Source: Bacilli bacterium (GTDB lineage Bacteria > Bacillota_I > Bacilli_A > RFN20 > CAG-826). From it: a stretch of 51,414 nucleotides of DNA. Positions 14,798 through 39,041 of the stretch are shown here, piece after piece. The stretch spans positions 1-51,414 of the forward strand of contig JAILEX010000029.1 of the NCBI GenBank assembly GCA_024687185.1, given 5' to 3'. A program made the position numbers and the translations under genes. How positions within the stretch are numbered: position 1 is the first letter of the stretch; each line of letters starts with the position of its first letter. The notes beneath the pieces were generated by a model. That model did no database searches and was not told the origin of the DNA. It saw only the letters and a program-made list of their open reading frames with translations.

Positions 14798-16873
<2,076 letters not shown>

Positions 16874-18153: not shown

Positions 18154-18198
18154 ACTTAAATCCTTTTTTACCGCGAAAATAGTTTACTACATAGTAGT

Positions 18199-18230: not shown

Positions 18231-18268
18231 GGGGTCTTTCGGTGAAACTTTAAGCGGGGTTTAAAGGC

Positions 18269-19393
18269 TTAATAATTCCTCATTGGCGTGATTAATTCGA
18301 TGGCGGATTCATCTTTGGGTGACTTCACCACAAACGGCCTTCTTTCGGCCTGGAAACAGATGACCACATCCTCGGCCTTCAAGACGCGGATCGCCTCGAT
18401 GACGAAACGGGAGTTGAAGCTGATCGATAGGGGCTCGCCTTCATATTGGAAGGTGAGGATAGGTTCGTTGCCCGATCCGTTGCGGTCGCTTTTCACACTG
18501 ACCTCGACGTTTTCCTCGCTCATCGAGAGCTTGACGACGCTTTCCCTATCCATGGAAAGGATGGAAATACGGCTCATGGCTTCAAGAAGTTCGTTGGAAT
18601 TGACCTGCAATTGGTAATTGAAGGCATAGGGGATAGCGGATTCGGAGACAACGTAATCGCCGGGGATAAGCCTTGCGGAAACGACGTTGCCATCGAATAG
18701 GAATAGGGCCTTGTTGCTAGAAACGAACATCTGGACCTTGTCGCATCCCTCAATCATTTTGGAGACGTCGACCATCGATTTGGCGGGGATGTTGGTGGAG
18801 AAGCGGACGTCGCTATCGATGTTGATGGCTTTGCGGGCCAAACGGGCAGAATCGGTCGTGGTGGCCTTTAAAACGCCATCCTGGGCACGTAGGTTGATCG
18901 CCGTCATAACGGGGCGCTGTTCCTTTGTAGAAGCCGCGTAAGCCGTTTGGGAGACGAGTTCGATTAAATCCTCGGCAGGTAGTTCCAATTCGATTCCATT
19001 GGGCTCTAAATCGATATCGGAGTATTCCTCCGCCCTTGCGCAGTTGGTCAACTTGATACTGGTATGGCCGTCGCTGATATTCGCGATCGCGTTATCGATA
19101 ATATCTAAATTAATGGTCGTGCCCCCGAGTCCGCGTATTAGATTGGTGAGGATGTTGGCTTCGATTAGGATGGAGCCAGGGACTGCGTTGGAGATTATCG
19201 TTTTTCCGTTTTTGGAATATGGGACAAAGCTACGGACGGTGATCTCGCTATTGGAACCGGTGACTTCCAATCCCCTTTCGTTTAGGTCGAGTTTGAAGCT
19301 CGATAGAACGGGGATTGGGTTTTTCGGAGCAATGGCATGGCCAGAGTTCGTTAACGCTTTTAGGAAATATTCTCTTTCGATGGTAAGACGCAT
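18269..19393 (-). CDS. dnaN: DNA polymerase III beta sliding clamp
   Basis: RPVMTAI, TTDSARLA, SFNSRF, C-terminal LITPMR; immediately downstream of dnaA. Confidence 0.95.
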   Translation of the reverse strand: MRLTIEREYFLKALTNSGHAIAPKNPIPVLSSFKLDLNERGLEVTGSNSEITVRSFVPYSKNGKTIISNAVPGSILIEANILTNLIRGLGGTTINLDIIDNAIANISDGHTSIKLTNCARAEEYSDIDLEPNGIELELPAEDLIELVSQTAYAASTKEQRPVMTAINLRAQDGVLKATTTDSARLARKAINIDSDVRFSTNIPAKSMVDVSKMIEGCDKVQMFVSSNKALFLFDGNVVSARLIPGDYVVSESAIPYAFNYQLQVNSNELLEAMSRISILSMDRESVVKLSMSEENVEVSVKSDRNGSGNEPILTFQYEGEPLSISFNSRFVIEAIRVLKAEDVVICFQAERRPFVVKSPKDESAIELITPMRNY

Positions 19394-19399
19394 GTTTTT

Positions 19400-19473
19400 T
19401 ACCTCATTTTATCTATTCAAATTAATTTAGATTATTTAGTTACAATAATAAGGGCTGTGGATATTGTGGATAA
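19400..19473. other. oriC unwinding region between dnaA and dnaN
   Basis: Tandem DnaA boxes TGTGGATAT (19456-19464) and TGTGGATAA (19465-19473). On the - strand these are followed by a GCCC spacer, TAT-TAT trio-like triplets and an AT-rich tract. Confidence 0.8.
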
Positions 19474-19546
19474 CTCGAATTCCGCTTGCCTAGAAATTGT
19501 ACCATTTAACGGAATATTGAGAAACCTTTTATTTAATAAATAAACT

Positions 19547-20908
19547 CTATTTCACAAGTTTGTTTTTCAACTCTTGCAGAGCTATCCCCATATCGGGGTT
19601 TTCTTTCAACTCTTTTTCCACTTTCGCGATGCCGTTAAGCACAGTCGAGTGGTCCCTTCCGCCGAAGGTCTGGCCGATTTTGATGAGCGGGGTCTTCAGT
19701 AGTTCCCTATCAAGATACATTGCAATATGACGGGCGAGGGCGACCCTGGCGGTACGGATCTTGCCGGTGAGCTGAGATGGGGTGAGAGAATAGTAATTGG
19801 CAACGGTAACGATGATTTTGTTTTCCGTCAATTCATCCTTGTCGTCCTGAGCCTCCAGCAAAGGCTTGATCGCTTCGGTCGCAAAGCCCATGGAGATGTG
19901 CTTGGTGGGCCTAATCGTTACGGAGTAGAAGATAAGCCTTAGCAAGGCTCCTTCGAGTTCCCTGACGTTTTTGCTGAACTTGGTGGCCAAGTATTCAATA
20001 ACCTCGTCATCGAAGTCATCAGGATTCAAATTTTGCTGCAAAATCTTAACCTTTAAAATCTTTTTGCTTGTTTCCACGTCGGGTGGATTGATGTTCAGAA
20101 CAAGTCCTTTGGAGAACCTCGACTTCAACCTTTCGTCAAAGCCGTCTAGGTTTGCCGGAGGTTGGTCTGAGGTGATGACGATTTGCTTTCCAGCATCGAT
20201 GAGATTTTGGAAAATCACAAAGAACATTTCCATGGTCTTTGCCTTATTCTTCAAAAGTTGAATATCGTCAATCAAAAGAATGTCGACATCGTTTTTGAAG
20301 TAGTCCACCAAAGACTTGTCTTCCTTATAGCCGGTGGCGAATTTGACGTATTCGTCGATGAAGCCAGACGCCGAAGTGTAGAGGACCTTGGTGCTTGGTG
20401 AGGCCTCTTTGGCCGCGTTGCCGATAGCTTGGATCAAATGGGTTTTGCCTAACCCTGGGCCAGAATAGAGCATCAAGGGGTTATAAAGCTGACCGGGTGT
20501 CGAAGAGATCATCAAAGATGCCTGATAGGCCTCGAGGTTGCAGGTGCCAACGACGAATTTGTCGAAGGAGAACTGTTTGTCTAGTTTTGAGTCTTTGAAG
20601 TACTGGGGAGCTTTTTCCGCCTTTTCCGCTTCCTGGATCTTTTCCACAGAGCTTCCATCAACGAAGGAAGCATGCAGATCGGTTCCGGTGACTTTAAGCA
20701 AAATATCATCGATGGTTTCGGAATACTTTTGGGAAATAAGCACCGCCGCCGTGGTTGTGGAAACGCCGACCGTGATGGTCTTTTCCTTGATGCTTAGGGC
20801 CTTGGTATCCGCGAAGAAGCTATCATAGAACCTCTCGTGAACCTGTTTTTTGATTTCTTTCAGCACATTTTCCCAGATGAGGGTGATTTCGGTGATCGTT
20901 GCAGACAT
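19547..20908 (-). CDS. dnaA: Chromosomal replication initiator DnaA
   Basis: YNPL, GPGLGKTHL, LIDDIQ, NVRELEGAL and GGRDHSTV motifs. Confidence 0.98.
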   Translation of the reverse strand: MSATITEITLIWENVLKEIKKQVHERFYDSFFADTKALSIKEKTITVGVSTTTAAVLISQKYSETIDDILLKVTGTDLHASFVDGSSVEKIQEAEKAEKAPQYFKDSKLDKQFSFDKFVVGTCNLEAYQASLMISSTPGQLYNPLMLYSGPGLGKTHLIQAIGNAAKEASPSTKVLYTSASGFIDEYVKFATGYKEDKSLVDYFKNDVDILLIDDIQLLKNKAKTMEMFFVIFQNLIDAGKQIVITSDQPPANLDGFDERLKSRFSKGLVLNINPPDVETSKKILKVKILQQNLNPDDFDDEVIEYLATKFSKNVRELEGALLRLIFYSVTIRPTKHISMGFATEAIKPLLEAQDDKDELTENKIIVTVANYYSLTPSQLTGKIRTARVALARHIAMYLDRELLKTPLIKIGQTFGGRDHSTVLNGIAKVEKELKENPDMGIALQELKNKLVK

Positions 20909-20929
20909 AAGTTTTCTCCGAACAAATTA

Positions 20930-21240
20930 AAACATTTCCACAATAGAAATGCATTAAAAATGTAAAGAAATTAAACTTTCCACAAAAATGGTATCGAAAA
21001 CAGTCAAAAACCACTTTTTCACACCATTGAAATTGTGGATAACTACCCTTTTCTTTGAAAGCGGTTAAATTATTGTGGATAATTTTATAAATAAAACCAT
21101 TTTGTTGAAAAATATCAGGGCTAAAAAAGGGAATAACTCGGACCTATGGATGGTTTTCCACTTTGTCCACAAACAGGTTTACCAACATGGCAAATCGAGG
21201 CTTTCAAACCCGTGTTGAAAAGCTTTTTATCCGCTTTGGA
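20930..21240. promoter_or_regulatory. DnaA-box cluster upstream of dnaA (oriC left part / dnaA autoregulation)
   Basis: Perfect TGTGGATAA at 21034-21042 and 21074-21082, plus several near matches (TTTCCACA, TTGTCCACA, TGTTGAAAA); AT-rich; gene strand switches here. Confidence 0.85.
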
Positions 21241-21359
21241 TATGTTGAAACTTTGTTTTGTCATTCTATTTCTCGGGCTGGAGGGATCGAAGTCAAAACG
21301 GCTGCGTAAATTGGGCTTTCAAGTCCGTTTTTCACGCTTTAATCGCGATATTTTTGTGG

Positions 21360-21388
21360 TTGTCCGACTCCAAGCGCGCACGTATAAT
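21360..21388 (+). promoter_or_regulatory. Sigma-A promoter of the rpmH operon
   Basis: TTGTCC-17 nt-TATAAT. Confidence 0.7.
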
Positions 21389-21415
21389 AGACACCGCACC
21401 GAAAGGAGACCAACC

Positions 21416-21553
21416 ATGGGAAAGAAAACTTACCAACCCTCAAAGATCAAACATGCTCATAAGGCCGGATTCCGCGCCCGCATGGCCACCCACTGTGGCA
21501 GGAAGGTTTTGGCACGCCGCCGCGCCAAAGGCCGCGCAAGGCTCGCCGCCTAA
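21416..21553 (+). CDS. rpmH: 50S ribosomal protein L34
   Basis: [25 protein letters not shown]...RRRAKGR; RBS AAGGAG. True start is 21416, not 21146. Confidence 0.96.
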
Positions 21554-21571
21554 TCCCCTTTTGACTCACCC

Positions 21572-21916
21572 ATGAAAAGAGAATACCGGGTTAGAAAACA
21601 CAGCGATTTCGACCGTATTATTCAGGGTGGGAGAAAAATCAAATCCTCGCACTTCAACCTTTACTTTCTTCCCGCGACGGGCAACGAAACTCACGGCTAT
21701 ATCGGTATAGCTATCTCCAAAGCCAACGGGAACGCCGTAACTAGAGTAAGGGAGAAACGTCAGGTACGGGCCATTTTAGCCAAGTCCGGTTTCGAGAAGG
21801 AAAAGGTCTACCTCATTGTCGTGATCCGTCCTAGCTATGACCCTGGGACGTATCACGAAAACGAGTCAGAATTGCTAGAAAAGCTAGAATTGATTAAAAA
21901 GGACTACCTAAATTGA
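21572..21916 (+). CDS. rnpA: Ribonuclease P protein component
   Basis: YRVRKHSDF, GIAISK, NAVTRVREKRQVR (RNR-like motif); follows rpmH. Confidence 0.92.
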   Translation: MKREYRVRKHSDFDRIIQGGRKIKSSHFNLYFLPATGNETHGYIGIAISKANGNAVTRVREKRQVRAILAKSGFEKEKVYLIVVIRPSYDPGTYHENESELLEKLELIKKDYLN

Positions 21917-23622
21917 AAAACACGTTAGAGAAAAAATCGCACAAATCCCTGTTCGCGTTCTTAGCGGTCGGGGTGGGTTTGCTAACGCTGACTAGCTGCA
22001 CCGCGAATTTCTGCTCCGACGAAGACCGCGCGCAAATGGCGTACCCCTATGATCAGGGCGTCACGGTCTATTGCACCGAAGCAGAATATAACAGCTATAA
22101 AGCGGACAATGCCGCCCTTGTCGAATATGAAGAAAGCATCGGCATCTCTGGCAAGGTTTTCGATTGCAACGATAACATCTATAAATACGTCCCATACCAA
22201 GTCAATGCGTATGGCATTTATGAATTTACCGGAGCCAAGACTACCTTCCTCCAGGGAACCGTTTTGAAAGCGGCCTATTCCGCCGGCTATCCCCTTCCCT
22301 CCCTCCAATATTGGGCGGAAATCGATAACCAGGTTTTGGAGGCCTGCGTCTATATGGCCTATCAAAGCGATCGTGGCCAAACCCCCACATTCGACGTCAC
22401 CGCGACCAACCAAGTCGCGCCCGATACCTTTAAGGAATCGCTTACCGCACATGAAGATAGCGAAACCGTCTGGTCCATCAGCGCCTTCACCAAAGCGGAT
22501 AGCGACACCGTCACCGAAGACTCCAAAATAATCAAGCATTCCGTCTTACGCCAATATGGCTATTTGAAGTTCACGGGCAAGGACAACAAACTCTGGGCCA
22601 ACCTCGACCAGTGGTATAAAAACGCCTATGCCAGCAATGAAGCGGGGCTAGGCATCGACGGTTGCCCAACCAGCGACTTCATGACCTATTACCAAACCCA
22701 GGTCAATAACAAAGTCGCGAATATCCGTTCTTGCATCGCCACGCGCACCGGCTCCTATGGCCACTATGGCTCGAATGCGAACTGGGAAGTCAACATCACC
22801 AAAAAGGACTGGGGCTATGCCTGGAGCAAAGGCTTCTTGGAAGGCTTGCTCGTCTATCCCGTCTCCTGGCTCGTCGATACCTTCGCCTTCAGCTTTGACT
22901 CTAGTTTAAGCGGCGTGGGTCAGATCTGGGCCCTAATCCTAGTCACCTTAATCGTTAGGGGACTATTGATGCTAGTCACCTTCCGCTCGACGATGTCGCA
23001 GCAAAAGATGACGGCCTTGCAGCCCGAACTCGCCAAATTGCAGGCGAAATACCCCAATTCCAACACCAATCAAGCCGAAAAGCAGAAGCTTGCGCAGGAA
23101 CAGATGGCGTTATATCGCAGGAACAAGATCCATCCGATGGGTCAAATCCTCGTTCTAATCATCCAGTTCCCCGTATTCATCTGCGTTTGGAGCGGCTTGC
23201 AGGGTGCGTCCACTTTGTCCACCGGCCAAGTTCTAAACCTCAGGTTGAGCGACAACATCAACACGATTTTGATGAATGTCTCCGGCACCTGGTATGCGAA
23301 TACGACCGGATGGTGGACCGCATTGGTTCTCTTCCTGTTGATGGCTGGCGTTCAGATCATGGCCATGGTCTTGCCTAGAATCATCCAGAAGAGAGCGCAG
23401 AAAAACGCTCCTAAACTAAGCGCGAACCCCGCGCAAACCGATCAGCAGAAGCAAATGAAGATGATGTCTATCGTCATGGTAGGCTTCACGATCGTCATGG
23501 GCTTCATGCTTCCCGCCGCTATGGGTGTCTATTGGTTGATATCCGGTCTTCTCTCCATGCTGCAGACCCTAATCACCCAACTCATCATCCGTAGAAGGGG
23601 CGCCAACAAAAAGACTCGATAA
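21913..23622 (+). CDS. yidC: Membrane protein insertase YidC with lipoprotein signal and long extracytoplasmic domain
   Basis: Lipobox LTSC; C-terminal Oxa1/YidC core (LQPEL, QEQMALY, LIIQFPVF, GVYW); TTG start overlaps rnpA. Confidence 0.9.
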   Translation: MKNTLEKKSHKSLFAFLAVGVGLLTLTSCTANFCSDEDRAQMAYPYDQGVTVYCTEAEYNSYKADNAALVEYEESIGISGKVFDCNDNIYKYVPYQVNAYGIYEFTGAKTTFLQGTVLKAAYSAGYPLPSLQYWAEIDNQVLEACVYMAYQSDRGQTPTFDVTATNQVAPDTFKESLTAHEDSETVWSISAFTKADSDTVTEDSKIIKHSVLRQYGYLKFTGKDNKLWANLDQWYKNAYASNEAGLGIDGCPTSDFMTYYQTQVNNKVANIRSCIATRTGSYGHYGSNANWEVNITKKDWGYAWSKGFLEGLLVYPVSWLVDTFAFSFDSSLSGVGQIWALILVTLIVRGLLMLVTFRSTMSQQKMTALQPELAKLQAKYPNSNTNQAEKQKLAQEQMALYRRNKIHPMGQILVLIIQFPVFICVWSGLQGASTLSTGQVLNLRLSDNINTILMNVSGTWYANTTGWWTALVLFLLMAGVQIMAMVLPRIIQKRAQKNAPKLSANPAQTDQQKQMKMMSIVMVGFTIVMGFMLPAAMGVYWLISGLLSMLQTLITQLIIRRRGANKKTR

Positions 23623-23638
23623 TCAAGGAAGTGCCAAT

Positions 23639-24241
23639 ATGAAAGAATTCACAGGAAAGACGGTGGAAGAGGCGGTTGCTAACGCCTGTTCCGAACTAGG
23701 CGTCGCGGAAAACCGCCTCGTCTACGAAGTCCTCGAAGAGAAGAAGGGCCTATTCAAAAAGGTCGCGCGTATCGTCATCTATGATATTACTGATGCGCGT
23801 GCGTATGCCGAGGAATATCTTAATAAGGTGTTTGAGGCGATGGGCTTAGACGTCGAGGTCAATAGCACCGTCGAAGACGACATCATCAAAGTCGTCCTCG
23901 AATCCGATCGTAACCCCATCCTCATCGGCAAAAACGGCAAGACCCTACAAAGCCTTAACGAAATCACCAAGCTCGCGGTTTCCAACAAATACCGCCATCG
24001 CTACCGCGTCTTGCTAGACGTTGGCGACTATAAGAGCGAGAAATACGAGAAATGCGTCCGCATCGCCATTCGCGTCGCCAAGGAAGTCAGAAGGACTAAG
24101 GTCGATGCCGAGCTCGATCCGATGACCCCCGACGAAAGAAGGATGGTCCATAACGCCCTCACCGATTTCCGTGGCGTTCGCACCGAATCGGAAGGCGAAG
24201 GACCCAATCGCAGGATCTTCATCCGCTACGTAAACGATTAA
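23639..24241 (+). CDS. jag: RNA-binding protein Jag/EloR/KhpB (Jag_N-KH-R3H)
   Basis: FTGKTVEEA, LIGKNGKTL (KH), ERRMVH (R3H). Confidence 0.93.
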   Translation: MKEFTGKTVEEAVANACSELGVAENRLVYEVLEEKKGLFKKVARIVIYDITDARAYAEEYLNKVFEAMGLDVEVNSTVEDDIIKVVLESDRNPILIGKNGKTLQSLNEITKLAVSNKYRHRYRVLLDVGDYKSEKYEKCVRIAIRVAKEVRRTKVDAELDPMTPDERRMVHNALTDFRGVRTESEGEGPNRRIFIRYVND

Positions 24242-24244
24242 TCA

Positions 24245-24288
24245 AAACCCTTCTTTTCTAGATACCTATCTGGGACGGAAGGGTTTTT
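24245..24288 (+). terminator. Terminator-like hairpin between jag and mnmE
   Basis: AAACCCTTC...GAAGGGTTT stem followed by T-run. Confidence 0.6.
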
Positions 24289-24311
24289 CTCTCAATAAGG
24301 AATAAGAACAA

Positions 24312-25637
24312 ATGGATCCAATCATCGCCCTGGCCACACCGCCTCTAAAAAGCGCTTTGGCTCTCCTGAGGTTATCGGGAGAGGGCGTTTTCGATGCGGT
24401 CTCCAAAAGCCTAGACATGGATCTAGAAACGTTTTTGAAACGTAAAATACAAGTCGGCTACCTCAAACATAAAGGCCAAATCATCGACCAGGTCGTCTGT
24501 TTTATCTATGTCGCCCCCAATTCCTTTACGGGCGAAGATAGCGTGGAAATCACTTGCCACGGCTCCATGGTCATCGCAAAGGAGATACTCTCCCATTTCT
24601 ATTCGTTAGGAATTAGGCAAGCCGAAAGAGGCGAGTTCTCCGCAAGGGCTTTCTATAACGGCAAGCTCGATTTGATTGAGGCTGAGGCCGTCAATGATTT
24701 GATCAACGCCTCAACCATAGAAAGCAAAAACGTTGCCATGCTCTCCTTAAAAGGCGAGACCAGTAGCCTTCTTTATCCCGTTTTGAAGCAAATAGATGAG
24801 ATGCTTGCCTTAATCGAAGTGAATATCGATTACCCCGAATACACCGATATAGAGGAAGTAAACCTCTCTAAGATCGCGAAGAATTGCGAATCCTTGAGGG
24901 AGGATATCCTTTCCCTAATCAAGGAAGGGAACGAAGGGAAAATCGTTCGCGAAGGCATCAAAGTCGCCATCGTAGGCGAGCCAAACGTTGGCAAAAGCTC
25001 TTTGTTAAATGCCTTAGTGGAAGAAGAAAAAGCCATTGTATCCTCTATTCCAGGCACCACTAGGGATATCGTGGAAGGCGATATTTCCGTTAAGGGCATC
25101 CCTTTGCATCTACTAGATACCGCCGGGATTAGGGAATCGAAGGATTACGTGGAAAACCTAGGCATCGAAAGAAGTAGGGACGCGATTAAAAACGCCGACC
25201 TCGTTTTGCTGATCCTTGATTCTAACGAGGAAGAAAAGGGATCGGACCTAATCGAATTATGCGAAGGCAAAGAATGCATCCGCGTATATAACAAAGCCGA
25301 TTTGCTAAGCGAGGAAAAGAAAAAGGATGGCCGCATCTATATTTCCGCTACCAATAAGGATATAGGCGAACTAAAGGAAGCCATCTATCAAAAACTAGGC
25401 CTATCCGATAAAGCCTTCCATGCGCCTAGCTTCTCTAACGCCAGGGAACTTGCTTTGTTGGAAAAGATCGCCGATTCCCTTTTTGAAGCAAAGAACATGT
25501 GCGAAGCAAACCTTACTAGCGACCTCATCTCCTCTTGCTTACAGGAAGCAAGGCTATATGGCAACGAGATCATAGGCAAGGAAGCGTCCTTGGATTTAAG
25601 CGAGGAGATCTTCTCTCGTTTCTGCGTGGGTAAATAA
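24312..25637 (+). CDS. mnmE: tRNA modification GTPase MnmE/TrmE
   Basis: SFTGED, GEPNVGKSS, GTTRD, DTAG, NKAD and C-terminal FCVGK. Confidence 0.97.
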   Translation: MDPIIALATPPLKSALALLRLSGEGVFDAVSKSLDMDLETFLKRKIQVGYLKHKGQIIDQVVCFIYVAPNSFTGEDSVEITCHGSMVIAKEILSHFYSLGIRQAERGEFSARAFYNGKLDLIEAEAVNDLINASTIESKNVAMLSLKGETSSLLYPVLKQIDEMLALIEVNIDYPEYTDIEEVNLSKIAKNCESLREDILSLIKEGNEGKIVREGIKVAIVGEPNVGKSSLLNALVEEEKAIVSSIPGTTRDIVEGDISVKGIPLHLLDTAGIRESKDYVENLGIERSRDAIKNADLVLLILDSNEEEKGSDLIELCEGKECIRVYNKADLLSEEKKKDGRIYISATNKDIGELKEAIYQKLGLSDKAFHAPSFSNARELALLEKIADSLFEAKNMCEANLTSDLISSCLQEARLYGNEIIGKEASLDLSEEIFSRFCVGK

Positions 25638-30197: not shown

Positions 30198-31274
30198 ATG
30201 AATATTCTTGCTTACACAAAGGCGAACAAGAAGACTTTCGAGGAAGAGGCGATCAACGCGGTTGATTACCTGATTCTTTCTTGGGTCAGTTATTTTGATT
30301 TCGCCTCAGTGGCAAACGAGCTTCCGATTAGCCTAGAGGAACTAGGCAAGAAAGACCTCTTTGTAAAGACCTCCAAGCCTTATCAAGAATGTTTCGAGCC
30401 CCTAAAAACCCGTTCCTTGACCAGGGCGCTAGGACTATCCCCAAGATTCAAAGACATTCAAATCATCGCCACCAAAGCGATTTATAACGATAACGGTACG
30501 ATGCTATTTGCCGCAGTCGCGCTTAAAGTCAATGATTTCGTGGTCATCTCCTATAAAGGGACCGGGTATAGCTATCAAGGATGGAAAGAGGATTTCATGC
30601 TTTCCTATCGACCCGAAATCGAATCGCATAAGGCCTCAAGGGAATTCTTTGCGGAAGTCGCTTCCAAAACCGAAGGCGACATCTATTTAATCGGGCATTC
30701 AAAAGGCGGTAACCTAGCGGTCAACACCCTTTTTACGGTCCCTGACCCCTCTAGAATCAAGGGCGCCTATTCTTATGATGGTCCAGGATTAGGAAGGTTT
30801 CCTTCAAGCATGGACCTTTCTTTGAAGGAAAGGGTTCATAAATACATTCCCCAATCTAGCATCGTAGGCCTTTTATTCGAAAGCGAATTCGAATCCAAGA
30901 TCGTAAAAAGCAATATGTTCTTCGTCTTCCAGCATAATCTCTTCACCTGGGAGATTAGGAACAAGGACTTCGTCTATTTAAGCAAACGTTCCGCCTATAC
31001 CGATAACCTCGTGGAATCGTTAAAAGCCTGGATCGATTCGTTAAACAAAGAGGACAAAGAGAAGTTCACTTTCCTCGTCTTTGGGGCGTTAGAAGGACTA
31101 AAGGCAACCGACTTCAACCAGTTTGGGAAAACCTGGCTTTTTCAGGTGGCGCCGTTATTACGTTCCTATAACAAGATGAGCAAGGAAGACAAAGCCCTAA
31201 TCGACCGCGTACTAAAAAGTCTTGGGAAGCATATCAACCAGCCCAAGAGGAAAAAATTACCAAAGCCAAAATAG
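30198..31274 (+). CDS. DUF2974/Mbeg1-like alpha/beta hydrolase (lipase-like)
   Basis: YKGT...GWKEDF, GHSKGG nucleophile, DGPG, PQSSIVG, QH..FTW. Confidence 0.85.
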   Translation: MNILAYTKANKKTFEEEAINAVDYLILSWVSYFDFASVANELPISLEELGKKDLFVKTSKPYQECFEPLKTRSLTRALGLSPRFKDIQIIATKAIYNDNGTMLFAAVALKVNDFVVISYKGTGYSYQGWKEDFMLSYRPEIESHKASREFFAEVASKTEGDIYLIGHSKGGNLAVNTLFTVPDPSRIKGAYSYDGPGLGRFPSSMDLSLKERVHKYIPQSSIVGLLFESEFESKIVKSNMFFVFQHNLFTWEIRNKDFVYLSKRSAYTDNLVESLKAWIDSLNKEDKEKFTFLVFGALEGLKATDFNQFGKTWLFQVAPLLRSYNKMSKEDKALIDRVLKSLGKHINQPKRKKLPKPK

Positions 31275-31385
31275 ACGATATCGAGGTTTTTCCCGAGTTT
31301 AAGCAACCTAGGCAATTAGGGGTCTATCTTTTATCTATCTATGGTATGATTTTTCGGCTTTCCTTTTTTGGGAAAAAGGACTCAT

Positions 31386-32492
31386 ATGAAAATCACTACT
31401 ATCGTCATTACCGGCGGACCCTGTGCTGGCAAAACCACCGCTATGAGCTGGGTGCAAAACGCCTTTAGCTCCTTAGGCTATGCCGTCCTTTTCGTTCCAG
31501 AAACGGCTACCGAACTAATCACCGGGGGCGTCGCCCCTTGGACCTGCGGCACTAACTGTGACTATCAAAAAGGGCAGGTTAGGCTACAACTAGAGAAGGA
31601 AAGCGTATTCCTAGAAGCCGCGAAGACGATGAACGCGGAAAAGGTTTTGATCGTCTGCGATAGGGGCTGCATGGATAACCTTGCTTATATGAATGACGAG
31701 GAATTCCAAGAGGTTTTGAAATACGTTGGCAAAACCGAGGAAGAACTAAAGAATAGGTATGACGCGGTATTTCATCTTGTCACCGCGGCCAAAGGCGCCG
31801 AGGAATTCTATTCGACCAACAATAACGCGGCTAGGACCGAAACCGTGGATGAGGCGTCCCGCATCGACGACAAACTAATCTCCTGTTGGAGTGGCCACCC
31901 CCATCTACGCGTCATCGATAATTCCGTTGAGTTCCAGCTTAAGATGAAGCGCCTAATCGGCGAAATCGCCTCTTTCCTAGGCGAGAAGGCTCCGTTTGAA
32001 TTCAATAGGAAGTTCCTTATCAAATACCCCGACATCAAGTGGCTTGAATCCTTGCCGGACTCTCACCGCATCGAAATCGTCCAAACTCACCTCAATAGCA
32101 CCAATAACCTTTCCGAAGTCCGTCTTCGCGAAAGGGGAATCGATGGCAACTTCGTCTATTATCAGACAATGAGGAAAGTCATCGGAGACGGGCAAAGCGT
32201 CGAGATCGAAAAAAGGCTTTCCCAAGAGGAATACCTCGAACTTTTATGGGAGGCAGATGCCAGAAAGCCACAAATCAGAAAGACGAGGTACTGTGTCTCC
32301 TTCAAGGGCCTATTCTTCGAAATCGACCTCTATCCCTATTGGAACGAGAAAGCCGTTTTGGAGGTTTCCTTCAATCCTGGAAGGAAGGCGCTAAAGTTCC
32401 CGGAGGAAATCGAAGTGATGCGCGAAGTCACCGACGATCCCGCTTTCTCTGACGTTAGGCTTGCCGCCCACCGCATTCCGAAAAACCGCTAA
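31386..32492 (+). CDS. NadR/Ttd14-type P-loop (AAA_28) domain fused to CYTH-like domain
   Basis: TGGPCAGKTT, VPETA, CDRG; C-terminal EFNRKFLI...RLRERG...IRKTRY...FEID. Start at ATG 31386 after AAAGGA. Confidence 0.85.
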   Translation: MKITTIVITGGPCAGKTTAMSWVQNAFSSLGYAVLFVPETATELITGGVAPWTCGTNCDYQKGQVRLQLEKESVFLEAAKTMNAEKVLIVCDRGCMDNLAYMNDEEFQEVLKYVGKTEEELKNRYDAVFHLVTAAKGAEEFYSTNNNAARTETVDEASRIDDKLISCWSGHPHLRVIDNSVEFQLKMKRLIGEIASFLGEKAPFEFNRKFLIKYPDIKWLESLPDSHRIEIVQTHLNSTNNLSEVRLRERGIDGNFVYYQTMRKVIGDGQSVEIEKRLSQEEYLELLWEADARKPQIRKTRYCVSFKGLFFEIDLYPYWNEKAVLEVSFNPGRKALKFPEEIEVMREVTDDPAFSDVRLAAHRIPKNR

Positions 32493-32526: not shown

Positions 32527-32569
32527 CAAAGAAAGGCGCCCGCTTGTTTGAACGGGCGCCCTCCTTTTT
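32527..32569. terminator. Bidirectional terminator between convergent genes
   Basis: GGCGCCCG (32535-32542) / CGGGCGCC (32553-32560) stem with A-rich and T-rich flanks. Confidence 0.75.
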
Positions 32570-34527
32570 CATTCGTCGCTATCGTCGCCGGCCTTCCAGT
32601 TGAAGGAGGGGAAGTCAAACGGTAGTTCGGAGGAGGATTCCTTGGTTTCTTCTTCCGATTCGATCTCCTCGATCTCCTCTTCTTCGTCCTCTTCGTCTAG
32701 ATCGACGCTAAGGCCTTCTTCCTTCTTGTAGGTACGAACGCCTTTGTAGGTATGTTCTTCGTCATTTGGAAGAATGGAGTTGAACGGGGCGAAGTCCCTA
32801 ACCGCGTATTCGTCGCGGAAGTCTTCGAAGTAGCCGTATTTGGCACAGACATAGCTTCTGATATATCCGCCTTTAACAACGGGGGAATAGATCCTCTTGA
32901 TGAAGATCTCGCCCGGCTTAATTAGGTCTAGGTCGGAAGTTGGGACGACTGGGACGGTTGTCCAGCTATAGGTTCCCTTGATCAGCGATTCATAGGAACG
33001 GATCGTCTTGGAGCCGCATTCATCGGAGAAACGTTTCTTGGTAAGCATCGATTGCGATCCCAAAAACGCCTGCTGGTTGCAGTTATCGATAACGATCTGG
33101 GCGCCTTCTTTGCCATAGACCAAATCGATTTGCTCATAGGATTGGACGAAGAGGTGGAACCAGATTTTGCGCGACCTCGCGGTTGCGATCTTGTTTTCGA
33201 AGTCGGGGATCTTGGGGATGTTGCCGAATTCGTCCAAAAGGAAATGGGTATCCCTTACCAAAGGCTCGTTCTCGTCGTTTTTGGGCGCGTTTTCCGCCTT
33301 TAGCAAAGTCTGGCGGTAGACCCAATCGACGAAGGTCGCGGCGATGGTGAAATCGCTTTTGTCATAATCCCTTGTGGCGATGAAGATCGCAAAGGGGGCG
33401 CTATCGTCTTCGATGTTGATGGTGGTGCCGGAGGTGATGAAGAAGATGTGGCCCGAGAACCATGGGGTCATGCGCGATTCGAATGTGCTTAGGAAGCCTT
33501 TCATTGTGCCATCGGCGGTTTGGGTGACGGCGTGTAGTTTTTCCAAAACCTCCAACGGTCTTCCTTCCTCTAGTTTGGCGAGCTTTCTTTTGGCGTCTTG
33601 GTTATTGGAGGTGCAGGCCGTGCGGATCATGCCGAAGGTATCGGAGACCGTCTTAAGGGTAAACATGTCCTTGGTCAGTTTTTTCTTTTCGTCTAGGGCA
33701 TCATAGAAAAGAAGCATCAATATGGCGAAAAGCAATCCTCTGCTTCCCTCTTCCCAAACGGGGTCCTTGTTGCTTTGGACGGGAATCATGGAGGAGGCGA
33801 ACTGATTGGCCAAAGAAGTCGCCTTGGAGATAAGGGAGAACTTCTCCACGTCGATGGAGGCCATAAGCATGTTCTTGGAAGGATATGCCTTTCCCTCATA
33901 TTCGTAATAGGAGGATTTGTATTCTGCTTCTGGGACGACCAAAGTCACCTTGGAATCGGGCTTTCCCGCAACTTGCCTTATCCCCTTTCCGATTTTCCTA
34001 ATGTCGGAAACGAGGTTATATAGTTCTTCTAGTGGGTTCCATCTATGGGTTTTGGTGAAGTCTTTGAAGTTAAGGACGAATAGGTTATATCCCATCTTCT
34101 TTAGGTGACGGGCGTTATGGTTGAATAGTTCGCCTTTGGGGTCGGTGATAAAGAGGTTAGGTTTGTTTTTCTGCGAGGAAACGGCCCTGATTTGGGGTTC
34201 CATGCACCCCGTGGTTTTGCCGCTACCGGTCGTGCCGACATAAAGCTCGTGGTAATTCTTCATGAAGGCATAACGCAACTTGCATTTGGCCTTTTTCTCT
34301 TCGGGAAGCGCCAAAAATTCGTCGGTGGAATAGGTCTTGCCCCTGTTATCGACAAAGTCGCTGCAGAAGGGGAAGCCTTTGATCTCGGTCTTTGGGAGGT
34401 CTTTGTAGTCGACGTAGGTAACGTCTTTTTCCGGTAAATCGCGATAATCGATGATCCTGCCGTCTTCTAGGTTTTCCTTGATGTAGCTTTCGGCGGATAG
34501 CGATGAAAATGTTTTGTACTGAGCCAT
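32569..34527 (-). CDS. VirD4/TraG-like type IV coupling-protein family ATPase without N-terminal TM anchor
   Basis: HELYVGTTGSGKT (Walker A), ITDPKGEL, RWNPL, LLDEFGNIP (Walker B), ATARSR, VQSYEQI; acidic C-terminal tail. Confidence 0.88.
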   Translation of the reverse strand: MAQYKTFSSLSAESYIKENLEDGRIIDYRDLPEKDVTYVDYKDLPKTEIKGFPFCSDFVDNRGKTYSTDEFLALPEEKKAKCKLRYAFMKNYHELYVGTTGSGKTTGCMEPQIRAVSSQKNKPNLFITDPKGELFNHNARHLKKMGYNLFVLNFKDFTKTHRWNPLEELYNLVSDIRKIGKGIRQVAGKPDSKVTLVVPEAEYKSSYYEYEGKAYPSKNMLMASIDVEKFSLISKATSLANQFASSMIPVQSNKDPVWEEGSRGLLFAILMLLFYDALDEKKKLTKDMFTLKTVSDTFGMIRTACTSNNQDAKRKLAKLEEGRPLEVLEKLHAVTQTADGTMKGFLSTFESRMTPWFSGHIFFITSGTTINIEDDSAPFAIFIATRDYDKSDFTIAATFVDWVYRQTLLKAENAPKNDENEPLVRDTHFLLDEFGNIPKIPDFENKIATARSRKIWFHLFVQSYEQIDLVYGKEGAQIVIDNCNQQAFLGSQSMLTKKRFSDECGSKTIRSYESLIKGTYSWTTVPVVPTSDLDLIKPGEIFIKRIYSPVVKGGYIRSYVCAKYGYFEDFRDEYAVRDFAPFNSILPNDEEHTYKGVRTYKKEEGLSVDLDEEDEEEEIEEIESEEETKESSSELPFDFPSFNWKAGDDSDE

Positions 34528-34530
34528 GTT

Positions 34531-35439
34531 TTATTCCTCGTCGATGCGGAAGCCAAACCCTTTGCTGGGCGCGACGGTGGGATTGGAGGCTTCTTTCCAA
34601 TCGCCGTTTTGGTAGTGGTTGATGTAATTCATCTTGGTGCGGTAGTCGATGGAGGGCAAAAGCATGATTTCCACGAAGGAATAATCGATGGAATAACGCC
34701 CTAGTCCCAAGACGATATCTTGCTTGATGGAGGAAATGAGGGCGAATTCCGTCTTCGCCTTCTCGCTTGCTTTGATCTCGCTAGGCAAAACCGTGATGCC
34801 TTCCTGGATATAGGGAGAAAGGGAAACGAGTTCCTTTAGTAGCTCTTCCTCTTCTTTCTTGCCAAGTTCCTTATAGGCAAGGGAAAGCAGCCTCAAGGAA
34901 AGTGCATCGCCCCAATAGGCGCACTGGATGAGCCTTCTTATGCCGGCATCTTTGTCTTTGCTGCATCCAATCCCTAGGAAAAGCATCATGCCGACCAGGC
35001 GGTTGATGGCGAGGAAGCCATTGCTTGCGACTATCTTTAATTCCCTTAGCCTCATGGACGCGCTATAGGCCAAATAGTTCTCATAAGAGAACCAAGACGG
35101 GTTGATTTCCGGGCATTTGGACCTAGAGATAAGCTGGAGGGAATGGATGACGTCACATTTGGTTTGGAACAAAAGGACATCCCCTTTGTCGATTCCGGCC
35201 TTATCGGTGGCATAGAAGCCCGCGATATCGCTTTCGATTCCGATGGCGGGAAGCTTCTCGGAGATGATTTTAACGCACCCATCTATCAGTTCTTCGCTAA
35301 ATCCATAGGATTGCCCAATGAATTCGACGAGCTTTTTTATGTCTGTGCTTGGCTCGTCGGTGGGGCTATTGGACAAAGCGGTGGCGGCCTCTACCATGTA
35401 GTAGAAGGCGTCGTAGTTCTTTTCGATTTCCTTAATCAT
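34531..35439 (-). CDS. Hypothetical protein with a SEL1-like repeat and C-terminal KGFGF motif
   Basis: VGMMLFLGIGCSKDKDAGIRRLIQCAYWGD matches the SEL1 pattern; ATG abuts the clpP stop (TAAATG). Confidence 0.7.
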   Translation of the reverse strand: MIKEIEKNYDAFYYMVEAATALSNSPTDEPSTDIKKLVEFIGQSYGFSEELIDGCVKIISEKLPAIGIESDIAGFYATDKAGIDKGDVLLFQTKCDVIHSLQLISRSKCPEINPSWFSYENYLAYSASMRLRELKIVASNGFLAINRLVGMMLFLGIGCSKDKDAGIRRLIQCAYWGDALSLRLLSLAYKELGKKEEEELLKELVSLSPYIQEGITVLPSEIKASEKAKTEFALISSIKQDIVLGLGRYSIDYSFVEIMLLPSIDYRTKMNYINHYQNGDWKEASNPTVAPSKGFGFRIDEE

Positions 35440-35982
35440 TTACTTTTTCTCCCCTTTGTTGGATTTGGTGATTTTGTCGATGAGTCCGTATTCCTTGGCT
35501 TCTATGGCGCTCATCCAATTGTCCCTTTCGCAATCCGCGTGGATGACTTCGAGGGGTTTGCCGGTATTTTCGGAAAGCACCTTCTCGAGGGTATTGCGGT
35601 TTTTGGTGAGGCTTTCGGCTATTTTCTCTATCGCCCTTTGCGAATCCGCGAAGGAGCGTTCGTTGCCTAGTAGGGGCTGATGGATGAGGATCCTGCTATG
35701 GGGCAAGGCGTAACGATGGCCTTTCTCGCCGCAAGAGAGCAAGAATGCACCCATGGAGGCGGCCATGCCATAGCAAACCGTATAAACCGGGGCGGAGATA
35801 TTTTGGATCGTATCGTAGATGGCCAAACCGTGGATGATGTTTCCGCCAGGGGAATTGATATACAAGGAGATGGGTTTGGTTTCGTCTTGGGCGTTGAAGT
35901 CAAGTAGGCGTAAGACGACGTCCATGGCGCTAGATTCGTTAACTTCGCCGACTAGGAATATGATTCTGGGTTCGTTTTCCAT
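35440..35982 (-). CDS. clpP: ClpP-family serine peptidase subunit, catalytic triad intact, N-terminally short
   Basis: YINSPGG, GMAASMG (Ser), IHQP (His), ERDNWM (Asp), EYGLID. Confidence 0.93.
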   Translation of the reverse strand: MENEPRIIFLVGEVNESSAMDVVLRLLDFNAQDETKPISLYINSPGGNIIHGLAIYDTIQNISAPVYTVCYGMAASMGAFLLSCGEKGHRYALPHSRILIHQPLLGNERSFADSQRAIEKIAESLTKNRNTLEKVLSENTGKPLEVIHADCERDNWMSAIEAKEYGLIDKITKSNKGEKK

Positions 35983-35993
35983 TGCTTTTCTCC

Positions 35994-36527
35994 TTAGATG
36001 ACCTTGTCCACGATTCCAAAGGCGACCGCGTTTTCTCCGGTTAGGATCTCGTTATTGTCGATTGCCTTTTGGATTTCCTCTAGGGGTTTGCCCGTATGCT
36101 CGGATAAAACGGCTTCTAATGCCGCCCTTTCCTCGCGCGCTTCCTCAACCTCGATTAGGGTTTCGGTCTGTTGGACCCTTGGCTTAAGGACGACGAGGGG
36201 CTGGATGAACTGGATTTCCGAGTTCTTGAGCATGAAACGCTTTCCCTTCGTGCAACTTGCAAGGATCGCGAGCGCATATCCCCCAACCGCGCCGATAACA
36301 TAGCACTCGATTGGGTTGGATAAGGATTCGATGACGTCGACTATCGCCATGGCGTCGGTGTAATAATGTGAGACGGAGGCGATATAGATCCTTATGGGTG
36401 CCGTCGAGCTCGACTCGGATAAAACAAGCAGGCTGCTGATGACGTTGCTTGCAACTCCCGCATCGATTTCCCCTTCAATGGTTATGATGCGGTTTCGAAA
36501 AAGTTTTTCTGAAAATGATTTGTCCAT
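35994..36527 (-). CDS. Non-catalytic ClpP homologue (ClpR-like)
   Basis: ClpP fold landmarks (RIITIEGEI, TKGKRF, HTGKPLEEI, AVAFGIVD) are present, but the triad positions read Gly/Ile/Asn. Start ATG 36527 after AAGGAG. Confidence 0.82.
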   Translation of the reverse strand: MDKSFSEKLFRNRIITIEGEIDAGVASNVISSLLVLSESSSTAPIRIYIASVSHYYTDAMAIVDVIESLSNPIECYVIGAVGGYALAILASCTKGKRFMLKNSEIQFIQPLVVLKPRVQQTETLIEVEEAREERAALEAVLSEHTGKPLEEIQKAIDNNEILTGENAVAFGIVDKVI

Positions 36528-36535: not shown

Positions 36536-36614
36536 CTCCTTTGACGCAAAGGAGGAAGCCTAGCTGCGCTTACCCCCGCTGCGCCGTTTTGGTTTTACCA
36601 AAATAAGTATATCA
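36536..36614 (-). promoter_or_regulatory. Extended -10 promoter and structured leader of the clp-VirD4 operon
   Basis: TG-A-TATACT at 36614-36606; leader hairpins TTTTGGT-AAA-ACCAAAA and CTCCTTTG-CGT-CAAAGGAG, the latter containing the SD. Confidence 0.6.
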
Positions 36615-36816: not shown

Positions 36817-37170
36817 GTGGAAGTGAATCAAGAACAAACGGTCACGGCGTTAATCCTGCTTGCGCTAATGAAGAACCTAAAAGCATCGCGAGCAGGTCTT
36901 GCGCGCTATTTTCACGTCAACCCCTCATCCGTGTTTGCCTGGACGGAAAACTATTACGAACCAAGCCTGGCAAGCTGCATGAAGATCAAGGAGGTCACCA
37001 ACTTCAATCTTATCCGTGCATACGATATGACCGTCAGCGCCGGAGGCAAGGAAGCGATATTGGGAGATCTAAGCAAACTGGCTCCCTTCGACCCTAGGGA
37101 ACTCAGCGACAAAAGGCTGAAATTCCCCAAAAAGAGATATCCAAGATTAACCAACCTACCCGAAAACTGA
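36817..37170 (+). CDS. Cro/C1 (XRE)-type helix-turn-helix protein
   Basis: SRAGLARYFHVNPSSVFAWTENYYEP matches the XRE HTH pattern; GAAAGGA RBS before GTG. Confidence 0.7.
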   Translation: MEVNQEQTVTALILLALMKNLKASRAGLARYFHVNPSSVFAWTENYYEPSLASCMKIKEVTNFNLIRAYDMTVSAGGKEAILGDLSKLAPFDPRELSDKRLKFPKKRYPRLTNLPEN

Positions 37171-37346: not shown

Positions 37347-39041
37347 ATGTCAAACTACAAAGATGAGATGAAGTACTCATCGCTGGCCAAGATCATGTCC
37401 GGTATTGACTATGTGATCATCGATACTTGCTCATTGATGGAAGATTCCTTCCCCGAATGGTTGGATATCTTGGTAGAGACAAAAGAAGAATACTTGGATT
37501 CCGCTTTGCCGATTTATGTATTGGAGTCCAGCGTAAAAGAGCTGGAAAGGCTATCAAAGGACAAGAAGTCCGCCGATAAGAGAATCGCAGCAAAGCGCGC
37601 GCTACGCATCCTAAAGAAATCAAAGCGTCACAAAGTGGTTGATTTCGTAAACATCGGAGCGAACCTAGAAGAAAAAGCCAATGAATCCAAAGAAGGCGAA
37701 TACGAATTCGCCGATCCAAAGATTGTCTCCCTCATCAATCTATATCGAATCCAAAAGAATATCGTGGCGATCACCCAGGACAAGAAGCTTGCGTCCGACA
37801 TTTTAGGGTTGAGAAGCCAACAAAGCGTTCATGGTAGGGTCGTAAAGGTCTATAAGATCGATGAGAACGCGTCCCTTCAGCCAAACCTTGGCGAAGAAAG
37901 CGCGCCCGCCCGCAAACCAGCGAAGACTACGAAAAAAGAGGCTAAGAAGCCAGTCGAAACAAAACCCGCGCCCAAAAAGGCGCCCACTAAGCCCGCAAAG
38001 AAGGAAAAGGATGAAACCACGGCTTTGCTTGAGAAGGTTTTAGCCGCGGACAATAGGCTGCATTCCATTCTTTCTAACCCCACCTATCCTAACGATAAGA
38101 AGGTGGCCGATTTGAAAACCCAACTCGCCGACTTGGAAAAGTTAGGGGCGGAAAAGCTTGGGAACAACAAACTCAAGCATGATGCCAATTCCATTAAGGA
38201 AGACATCAAGCGTTTTGAATCCGTTCCCGCTCTCCCTCTAAAGGAAGAGAAACCCAAGGCCATCCCCATGAAGGAGCCTAAGCCCGTTACAAACGATAAG
38301 AAGGCGCAGAAGAAGGACCTATGGTATGAATACGGCCAAACCGTAGAGGACGCTTTCCGCAACGTCGGAAACCATTATGGCGTCGTCTTCCGTGACCCCA
38401 ACATCCCTTATGTCCCCAACGTCCATGGCCCAATCAATTTCACAAGCGACGACCTTTCCAAAATCGCCGCTTCCTTCGGGAATACCCTTAAGGAAGGGCA
38501 AAAGATCGTTAAGCAATACAAAACCGTGAACCTTATGGCGGAGAGAACGCAAAAGGGAATCAAAGCCTGGATCGACTTAGAACGCAAACTGATCGTCCTT
38601 CCTTCCGCTAAGTCGGTAGAACCGGTTAAGGAAGAGGCGAAGGAAGCTATTAAGACCGAAGAAAAGCCTAAGCAGGTCAAAAAGATAAAGAAACCCGCCG
38701 CAAAGAAGGAACAGCCTAAGGCCGAGGAAAACCCAAAGCCATCAAAAGAAAAGGCTGAAGCCCCGAAGGCGGAAAAGGCAAAGCCAACCCAAAAGAAGGC
38801 GAAGGAAGAAGAACCAAAGCCTGAGGCGGCAAAAACCAAAAAGCCAACCAAATTAGAGGAGACGATCGCCTCCGACAAAAGGCTAAAGGCCAATATCCAT
38901 AACCCCAATTATCCCAAAGCCCAAAAGCTGAAGGATGTCGAGGAGCAGATCGCCAGGGTCAAAAAGATTCCTCTTAAGGATAGGGGCGAGCTCAATTTCG
39001 GGCTCGATTCCTTAAAAGCGCTTCTTGAACTTTTGAAATAA
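37347..39041 (+). CDS. PIN-domain protein with K/P/E-rich linkers and an internal duplicated helical domain
   Basis: IIDTCSL, VKELE, ADPKI and ITQDKKL give the PIN acidic residues; two A.D.RL....NP.YP repeats. Confidence 0.75.
   Translation: MSNYKDEMKYSSLAKIMSGIDYVIIDTCSLMEDSFPEWLDILVETKEEYLDSALPIYVLESSVKELERLSKDKKSADKRIAAKRALRILKKSKRHKVVDFVNIGANLEEKANESKEGEYEFADPKIVSLINLYRIQKNIVAITQDKKLASDILGLRSQQSVHGRVVKVYKIDENASLQPNLGEESAPARKPAKTTKKEAKKPVETKPAPKKAPTKPAKKEKDETTALLEKVLAADNRLHSILSNPTYPNDKKVADLKTQLADLEKLGAEKLGNNKLKHDANSIKEDIKRFESVPALPLKEEKPKAIPMKEPKPVTNDKKAQKKDLWYEYGQTVEDAFRNVGNHYGVVFRDPNIPYVPNVHGPINFTSDDLSKIAASFGNTLKEGQKIVKQYKTVNLMAERTQKGIKAWIDLERKLIVLPSAKSVEPVKEEAKEAIKTEEKPKQVKKIKKPAAKKEQPKAEENPKPSKEKAEAPKAEKAKPTQKKAKEEEPKPEAAKTKKPTKLEETIASDKRLKANIHNPNYPKAQKLKDVEEQIARVKKIPLKDRGELNFGLDSLKALLELLK

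Follow-up and report, generated by a model that had tools for sequence, protein, structure and literature searches.

The window investigated here is the whole of contig JAILEX010000029.1 of a Bacilli bacterium (assembly GCA_024687185.1; 51,414 nucleotides), and the system in question is a cassette of four genes on its minus strand. In the order ClpR-ClpP-Sel-VirD4, these genes encode a ClpR-like protein (35994-36527; 177 aa from the ATG, or 180 aa from an in-frame GTG at 36536 that represents an alternative start; Pfam CLP_protease, 1.3e-36), an active ClpP that keeps the Ser-His-Asp triad (35440-35982; Pfam CLP_protease, 1.2e-61), an all-helical protein of 302 aa, referred to as Sel, in which a single Sel1-like repeat region precedes a disordered C-terminal tail (34531-35439), and a 652-aa ATPase of the VirD4/TraG/TrwB type (32569-34527; Pfam PF02534, PF12696, and PF10412). 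The original prediction had described four genes with gaps of 11, 0, and 3 bp, and the open reading frames, coordinates and intergenic gaps are borne out. The analysis suggests that the cassette represents an undescribed ATP-driven protease or defence module.

Regarding the two ClpP-family proteins, alignment of the triad columns gave G, I, and N in the ClpR-like protein compared to S, H, and D in the cassette ClpP, in agreement with the earlier designation of the first gene as ClpR-like; the name ClpR is used descriptively, and the comparison held no cyanobacterial sequences. The Ser-His-Asp triad is disrupted in 14/14 ClpR-like paralogues, with the His kept in none, the Ser in two and the Asp in one of them, and it is intact in 16/16 module ClpPs, including that of the window (208 bits, Pfam PF00574). 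The window ClpP starts approximately 22 residues late, with an N-terminal extension of 0 residues compared to 22-42 residues in 14 ordinary ClpPs, so that the module ClpP, as judged from the alignment, is without the stretch that forms the axial loops, a feature missed by the earlier note; the module ClpR is also N-terminally short. Both cassette proteins fall below every curated NCBIfam ClpP cut-off, the window ClpP reaching 194.6 bits (cut-off 308.6) and 216.6 bits (cut-off 249) with the equivalog models TIGR00493 and PRK00277, respectively. In a maximum-likelihood tree of 14 ClpR, 14 paired module ClpP, and 14 ordinary ClpP sequences from related genomes, ClpR (support 100/100), paired module ClpP (100/97), and ordinary ClpP (100/99) form separate groups; the module ClpP and ClpR clades branch broadly in parallel, and two single-copy, N-terminally short ClpPs group closer to the ordinary ClpPs.

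The Sel protein has no match in Pfam (E<=0.1), NCBIfam, or PADLOC. Its AlphaFold2 model is confident and all-helical (predicted local distance difference test, pLDDT, 91; predicted template modelling score 0.89), with the exception of the last 16 residues (287-302), which have a pLDDT <50 and are disordered. The original prediction had named it a SEL1 protein. This label stands in so far as the Sel family profile matches many multi-repeat proteins at approximately residues 132-200 (4/4 of those checked were Sel1 proteins), but there is no Pfam match to the Sel1 repeat (PF08238) in Sel, and Foldseek ranks Sel1-repeat proteins first only at E ~0.1 with a template modelling score (TM-score) of ~0.26, and thus returns no significant match. 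A profile search of 1.84 billion representatives detected 78 Sel representatives at E<=1e-30, all of which are ~300 aa in length or fragments, with no fusions to other domains.

The most conserved feature of the disordered tail is the FGF tripeptide at residues 295-297 (34549-34557, minus strand), to which the original prediction had drawn attention. Among 28 aligned Sel homologues, a hydrophobic-Gly-hydrophobic motif is present in 28/28, with G296 invariant, F297 at least 90% conserved, and variable flanks. The motif is found within the last 24 residues in 49/57 full-length Sel representatives, as IGF (22), FGF (11), LGF (7), VGF (5), MGF (2), IGL (1), or FGL (1), of which 35 agree with the strict form (L/I/V)-G-(F/L) and 14 more are a hydrophobic variant; the chance expectation is about 1 in 8 by our own rough estimate. 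The motif is also retained at loci without a ClpP of their own. According to a published study, (L/I/V)-G-(F/L) is the consensus with which Clp ATPases plug into the hydrophobic pockets of ClpP (PMC8745299). The Sel tail motif has the shape of this docking tripeptide and is a candidate plug for the ClpP pockets. A complex prediction with two ClpP, two ClpR, and residues 200-302 of Sel, using our own alignments, scored 0.02 compared to a mark of 0.32; its design was unlike that of the calibration set, so this result speaks neither for nor against binding.

The fourth gene encodes an ATPase with the three Pfam domains of coupling proteins of the type IV secretion system (T4SS), namely T4SS-DNA_transf (PF02534, 2.2e-35), TraG-D_C (PF12696, 3.9e-27), and TrwB_AAD_bind (PF10412, 4e-20). 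The Walker A motif GTTGSGKTT (residues 98-106; 34210-34236, minus strand) was detected in 23/23 locus homologues, with 8/9 residues invariant and the first T at least 70% conserved; in a 48-sequence alignment the invariant residues are G98, T100, G101, G103, K104, T105, and T106, with at least 90% conservation of T99 and S102. The columns of the Walker B motif FLLDEF (residues 429-434; 33226-33243, minus strand) are invariant or nearly so in both sets. The AlphaFold2 model (pLDDT 88) has a soluble alpha/beta N-terminal region and a disordered tail (residues 611-652), and its best Foldseek matches, at E ~1e-16, are Cag-beta (8DOL) and TrwB (1E9S/1GL6), which outrank VirB4 and HerA; TM-scores reach 0.71 (normalised by target length), and HerA defence complexes are also returned, at E ~1e-7. 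By sequence, no chain of the PDB was matched at E<=0.01. The conserved Walker motifs and the TrwB/Cag-beta fold of the model indicate that the ATPase is probably competent.

The original prediction had termed this ATPase anchorless, and the Kyte-Doolittle scan agrees with this: no membrane-like segment was detected, the highest 19-residue mean being 1.26 overall and negative within the N-terminal 150 residues. An N-terminal anchor was likewise not found in the homologues, with means in the first 150 residues of at most 0.64 in 23/23 proteins (that of the window and 22 others). The NCBIfam model for VirD4-like conjugal transfer proteins of the CD1115 family (NF045973) gives 230.3 bits over residues 234-516 only, below its cut-off of 250. 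The C-terminal tail of the ATPase (residues 611-652; 32569-32700) is acidic, with an F-D/E-F-x-x-F-like motif in the nearest relatives, and the last 15 residues are acidic and aromatic in 81/120 homologues compared to 36-40/120 in two internal control stretches; this tail may represent a second docking motif, with Sel as a possible partner. Two more VirD4-like genes are present on the minus strand of contig C21 of the same assembly (5769-7355 and 12879-14450; 528 and 523 aa), encoding proteins 26% identical to the window ATPase and likewise without a membrane-like segment. A 302-aa open reading frame preceding the first of them, which ends in FYMGLIGD, was considered as a Sel candidate and rejected (hhalign probability 0.15). 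Soluble relatives of coupling proteins may form a wider class with different partners.

Investigation of the assembly of the window (1.62 Mb, 88% complete) revealed no ClpP genes other than those of the cassette and no ClpX over the cut-off, and the sole Clp/Hsp100 (AAA_2) protein is a ClpB without the N-domain. The host is thus without a canonical Clp ATPase partner. No AAA_10/VirB4 protein over the cut-off was detected in the assembly, and tyrosine recombinases were found only on contigs other than that of the window. A Pfam scan of 34 window proteins, to which approximately seven larger open reading frames did not belong, revealed no T4SS, relaxase, or trigger-factor proteins; with this scope, the earlier statement that the window holds no clpX, clpC, tig, relaxase, VirB4, or integrase genes is correct.

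To assess conservation of the cassette, loci were gathered by DNA scans with Sel alignments, which gave 24 genome loci and 17 metagenome loci; all frequencies are conditional on Sel, and the carrier genomes are incomplete, related metagenome-assembled genomes (MAGs), so that the counts are not independent. The carriers are recorded as MAGs of gut or rumen origin that belong to Bacilli, Clostridia, Christensenellales, Izemoplasmatales, Acholeplasmatales, and further groups, and the Sel search returned eight other clusters. A VirD4-like gene follows Sel directly in 23/24 genome loci and in 12/12 metagenome loci with downstream DNA, the other 5/17 ending too soon. The ClpR/ClpP pair is located within 2.3 kb in 11/24 genome loci, with a single N-terminally short ClpP in two more, and pairs or part-pairs were detected in 7/17 metagenome loci; one apparent absence of the pair is a locus at which a contig break splits the pair from Sel. 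At least four gene orders are represented: ClpR-ClpP-Sel-VirD4 (in the window and at locus L057), Sel-VirD4-ClpR-ClpP, ClpP-ClpR divergent from Sel-VirD4, and Sel-VirD4-f7-ClpR-ClpP-f6, in which f6 and f7 are membrane protein families described below. In the reverse test, the ClpR profile scored >230 bits in 3/399 scored genomes of the class, each time adjoining a VirD4-like gene, compared to ~170 bits or less for ordinary ClpPs. The genes thus form a conserved unit and not a chance neighbourhood, as the original prediction had anticipated for all four; conservation is strong for the Sel-VirD4 core, but the ClpR/ClpP pair is not a constant part of the unit.

A ClpP-family gene is present in 21/21 carrier genomes tested, four carrier genomes being outside this count. 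Eight of them hold the pair only, five hold an ordinary ClpP and the pair, seven hold an ordinary ClpP only, and one has a single N-terminally short ClpP beside Sel; apart from this single case, all eight carriers without an ordinary full-length ClpP hold the module pair. ClpX over the cut-off was detected in 0/5 pair-only genomes tested, that is, the assembly of the window and four others. The complementarity of module pair and host ClpP is indicative and not a statistical test, because the carrier genomes are related. The obligate core consists of Sel and the VirD4-like gene, and hosts that retain an ordinary ClpP seem able to do without the ClpR/ClpP pair.

The absence of ClpX from all of these pair-only genomes, together with the presence of ClpB as the only Hsp100 protein and of the module ClpPs as the only ClpP genes in the assembly of the window, would also be expected of a housekeeping substitute, i.e., a general Clp protease with a recruited motor in reduced genomes that have lost ClpX/ClpC and the ordinary ClpP. 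The G+C content of the cassette, which shows no anomaly compared to its surroundings, and its location ~12 kb from dnaA are compatible with such a role. A housekeeping function is nevertheless improbable in view of the sporadic distribution of the genes and the 12 carrier genomes that also hold an ordinary ClpP. Sel was detected in 0/40 relatives of the window genome, ClpP was found in 1/24 other genomes of its genus, and a true ClpR is restricted to the 3/399 genomes of the class mentioned above; the first two of these counts indicate that the cassette is accessory.

Regarding the wider neighbourhood, a Pfam census of 132 neighbouring proteins at 22 loci revealed TIR_2 as the commonest family, with five members. 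No T4SS, relaxase, or integrase families are among the 25 commonest of these neighbours, though rarer single cases are possible, and the earlier expectation that the VirD4 homologues would lie outside complete T4SS loci or integrative and conjugative elements is supported accordingly. This bears on the possibility that the cassette is a decayed conjugative element or prophage remnant whose genes are merely side by side. VirD4-type genes normally occur in conjugative elements, and the closest NCBIfam model is that of the conjugal CD1115 family, 20 bits short of its threshold as given above. The four reading frames are intact, however, and conservation of the motifs of ATPase and protease extends over ~40 loci; the genome has no AAA_10 protein over the cut-off, a search of 2.9 million viral contigs with the Sel profile returned no relative, and a search for att-like repeats flanking the cassette gave only short matches at chance level. 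Taken together with the neighbour census, this makes a remnant scarcely credible.

Large membrane proteins belonging to the families f3, f6, and f7, which are weakly related to one another, were detected in 12/24 genome and 7/17 metagenome loci and occur twice within one co-directional string of six genes. The f6 family has a match to RyR at 4.2e-5, below the cut-off, and f3 and f7 have no Pfam match; look-alikes of f7 in the Atlas carry RyR and TrkA_N domains, which is a lead only. Small RyR-domain proteins (f4, 1.9e-37) are present in six genome loci, and a TIR-STAND-TPR-kinase protein and a HicB-like protein were each detected in three. Genes encoding TIR proteins (ThsB-like and TIR-STAND-TPR-kinase), small RyR proteins, and RyR-ended membrane proteins adjoin Sel-VirD4 at L023, L031, L033, L067, and other loci. 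In a 2026 preprint, RyR domains are reported to bind or cleave the 2'/3' cyclic ADP-ribose (cADPR) made by TIR proteins (PMC13232231).

The four cassette genes could belong to a larger membrane-linked signalling or transport system that also comprises the f3/f6/f7 membrane proteins with their TrkA_N-like and RyR-like domains, the small RyR proteins, and the TIR proteins. In such a system the VirD4-like ring would dock on the membrane proteins, one component would be processed or removed by ClpP/ClpR, and the window would hold a reduced version. The recurrence of f3/f6/f7 and their six-gene string, the weak RyR match of f6 beside the strong one of f4, the RyR and TrkA_N domains in the look-alikes of f7, and the reported action of RyR domains on TIR-made cADPR are consistent with such a system. 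Against it, the window and approximately half of the loci are without the f3/f6/f7, RyR, and TIR genes; an f5-like protein (contig C64) and a weakly f3-like one (contig C69) are the only weak relatives elsewhere in the genome of the window, f3 and f7 match no Pfam family, and a PADLOC scan of ten neighbours gave nothing convincing. We consider such a system quite unlikely.

A single machine is favoured by the combination of gene linkage, complementarity of the ClpP content, a plug-like tail, a competent ATPase, and the lack of a canonical partner. The reading that we prefer, at a likelihood a little short of even, is an accessory, conflict-type ClpP protease whose motor is a type IV coupling protein (T4CP) and in which a captured substrate is threaded and degraded. 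The module would be accessory and spread horizontally, and its obligate pair would consist of a soluble T4CP (VirD4/TrwB) ring ATPase and a small helical Sel1-like adaptor. The hexamer of the ATPase would grip its substrate and thread it using ATP, the substrate being a protein or a DNA-attached protein. Sel would bind the ATPase, and its flexible C-terminal tail would supply in trans the hydrophobic-Gly-Phe plug, as do the IGF loops of the Clp ATPases, thereby holding the motor at a ClpP barrel via the hydrophobic pockets of the latter, and the barrel would degrade the threaded material. This barrel would be the module's own where it is encoded, composed of a gateless active ClpP and the inactive ClpR, and otherwise that of the host. 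The role would be one in conflict with phages, plasmids or conjugative elements and not in housekeeping, which is suggested by the sporadic distribution and the surroundings rich in TIR, RyR, and STAND proteins. The original prediction had proposed a dedicated ClpP/ClpR barrel docked by the tail of the Sel1 protein and fed or triggered by a soluble VirD4 ring. Its conserved unit, plug-like tail, VirD4-type ATPase without a T4SS, and lack of a Clp ATPase partner are retained here, but its core is narrowed to Sel and the VirD4-like gene, since the ClpP/ClpR pair is not universal.

Several observations weigh against the proposed T4CP-driven protease. The axial N-terminal loops of ClpP matter for functional coupling to ClpX and ClpA, and for a module ClpP that appears to be without them, any coupling to a motor must differ from the ClpX/ClpA type. 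No ClpP is located nearby in 11/24 genome loci, indicating that Sel and the VirD4-like protein may work without ClpP, and at the one exception to the direct succession of the two genes (L039) the VirD4-like gene is on a separate contig (L054) from Sel. Eight of the 57 full-length Sel representatives are without the tail motif, and the FGF of the window Sel lies outside the strict (L/I/V)-G-(F/L) consensus. Genome G002, of the same genus and 76% complete, has a ClpR/ClpP pair of the module type on contig C80 (L021; 2.6 kb), and searches of G002 for Sel and the VirD4-like gene found neither, so the pair may serve other partners too. A 279-aa divergent gene of no known family beside the G002 pair was considered as Sel and is not Sel-like (hhalign probability 0.13). 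Regarding the role in conflict, the window itself has no TIR or RyR neighbours, and the overlap with known anti-phage models that was to be checked with PADLOC is not convincing: with PADLOC-DB 2.0, the four proteins gave only a weak match of the ATPase to mad8 (1.1e-7) and a chance-level methyltransferase match, with nothing for ClpP and Sel.

The evidence from linkage and from the tail applies equally to a trigger of abortive infection, in which the VirD4-like ring senses foreign DNA or protein and the Sel tail, in the manner of an acyldepsipeptide, activates or assembles the loop-less ClpP/ClpR or the host ClpP, so that uncontrolled proteolysis halts the infected cell without any threading. 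The module ClpP has no gating loops, and its regulation must therefore lie elsewhere; the surroundings are defence-like, and the study of the docking consensus describes that an IGF-type motif on a foreign scaffold can act on ClpP and stimulate it (PMC8745299). ATPases of the same superfamily are combined with effectors in defence, as in the HerA complexes returned by Foldseek and in MAD7-MAD8, which is described as an ATPase-nuclease module (PMC13662399). However, a gateless barrel would be difficult to hold inactive if it were produced constitutively, and the inactive ClpR and the strict conservation of T4CP translocase features fit threading better, which makes a trigger of this kind unlikely.

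Regarding the layout of the cassette and its chromosomal setting, the Shine-Dalgarno sequence AAAGGAG is located 8 nt 5' of the ATG of the ClpR-like gene, and a perfect 8-bp hairpin (CTCCTTTG/CAAAGGAG; 36536-36554, minus strand) includes the Shine-Dalgarno sequence of this first gene and is followed by a T run. This hairpin may act in attenuation or in the control of translation; for the leader, the fold of minimum free energy has a different pairing, and a search of 32.4-37.4 kb against Rfam gave no match at E<=1. The single promoter of the original prediction was not recovered, as a sigma-70 scan upstream of the ClpR-like gene gave no site. The terminator that it described after the last stop codon was found both by the terminator scan and by direct reading of the sequence, in the form of a G+C-rich hairpin and T run (32530-32565, minus strand) beyond the stop codon of the VirD4-like gene, and is common to the cassette and the convergent gene. 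The window covers the origin region of the chromosome (12032-25637), with gyrA, gyrB, recF, dnaN, and dnaA leftward on the minus strand at 12-21 kb and yidC, jag, and mnmE rightward on the plus strand from 22 kb. By this gene order the cassette is located in the right arm, at ~12 kb, and is transcribed head-on to replication, in agreement with the orientation against the local replichore given in the original prediction; the GC skew is without the usual sign switch at the origin region, and orientation was therefore judged by gene order.

Upstream of the cassette and divergent from it is a 117-aa open reading frame (36817-37170, plus strand) that by eye resembles a small helix-turn-helix protein, followed by a gene for a lysine-rich protein of 564 aa with a PIN-like start (37347-39041, plus strand); neither has a match in Pfam, NCBIfam, or PADLOC. 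On the other side are genes encoding an AAA_28 NTPase whose C-terminal half is CYTH-like by eye (31368-32492, plus strand) and an Mbeg1-like hydrolase (30198-31274, plus strand). The flanking AAA_28 gene is rare in the genus (3/25), which indicates that the cassette is located in a variable stretch; it is found on short contigs, and borders of an island were not obtained by synteny.

To our knowledge, the ATP-dependent partners described for ClpP are without exception AAA+ unfoldases with built-in docking loops, and the well-described coupling proteins known to us all belong, anchored in the membrane, to secretion or conjugation machines. If the proposed T4CP-driven protease is correct, the module breaks both of these rules, the docking plug of ClpP can come from a separate adaptor, and the lone ClpP of gut bacteria without an ordinary ClpP or ClpX is explained. 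It is conceivable, though on the doubtful side, that the module would be the first case of a non-AAA+ motor driving a ClpP protease, the motor being a T4CP released from both membrane and secretion and joined to ClpP by the Sel1-like adaptor with its ClpX-like IGF tail. It would then be an immune device that captures the natural targets of coupling proteins, namely relaxases or other DNA-linked proteins of incoming plasmids, conjugative elements, or phages, and passes them to the protease. A role in defence against conjugative DNA or phages would add a proteolytic effector class to the immunity systems that combine an ATPase with an effector, and would provide a handle on gene flow in rumen and gut communities. 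A full-text literature search returned no paper in which ClpP is connected with either an ATPase of the VirD4/TraG type or an adaptor of the Sel1 type; most subscription journals and supplementary tables were outside this search, and a listing in a catalogue of defence candidates is possible.

Compared to known systems, the module is similar to TrwB, VirD4, and Cag-beta in the fold of its ATPase, the three coupling-protein Pfam domains, and the Walker motifs, and the small helical protein encoded beside the ATPase is reminiscent of the regulator CagZ, the partnership of which with Cag-beta is known from the title of PDB entry 8DOL. It differs from these coupling proteins in that the module ATPase has no N-terminal anchor (23/23) and no recurrent T4SS or relaxase genes beside it, and in that no VirB4-type gene was detected over the cut-off in the assembly of the window. 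Sir2-HerA, DUF4297-HerA, and the MAD7-MAD8 pair of MADS likewise combine a ring ATPase of the same superfamily with an effector enzyme in accessory loci, whereas the effector of the module would be a ClpP protease engaged via an adaptor, and the module has no convincing PADLOC match. In common with the TIR/cADPR signalling of Thoeris and its phage antagonists, TIR and RyR-domain genes recur near the module loci, although the window itself holds neither a TIR nor an RyR gene.

In common with ClpXP, ClpCP, and ClpAP, the module has a ClpP-family barrel, an adjacent ring ATPase, and a hydrophobic-Gly-hydrophobic tripeptide on a flexible element. However, its motor is a RecA-fold T4CP of the FtsK/HerA superfamily and not an AAA+ protein, the tripeptide belongs to a separate protein, the Sel1-like Sel, and is located on its C-terminal tail, and the ClpP appears to be without axial loops, is paired with an inactive paralogue, and occurs in a genome in which no ClpX was detected over the cut-off. 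Hetero-complexes of ClpP/ClpR and ClpP1/ClpP2 are known in cyanobacteria, plastids, and actinobacteria, and the module resembles them in having active and inactive or specialised paralogues side by side that are inherited together and form congruent clades; it is distinguished from them by the short N-termini of both proteins and by a clade that is tied to Sel and the VirD4-like ATPase.

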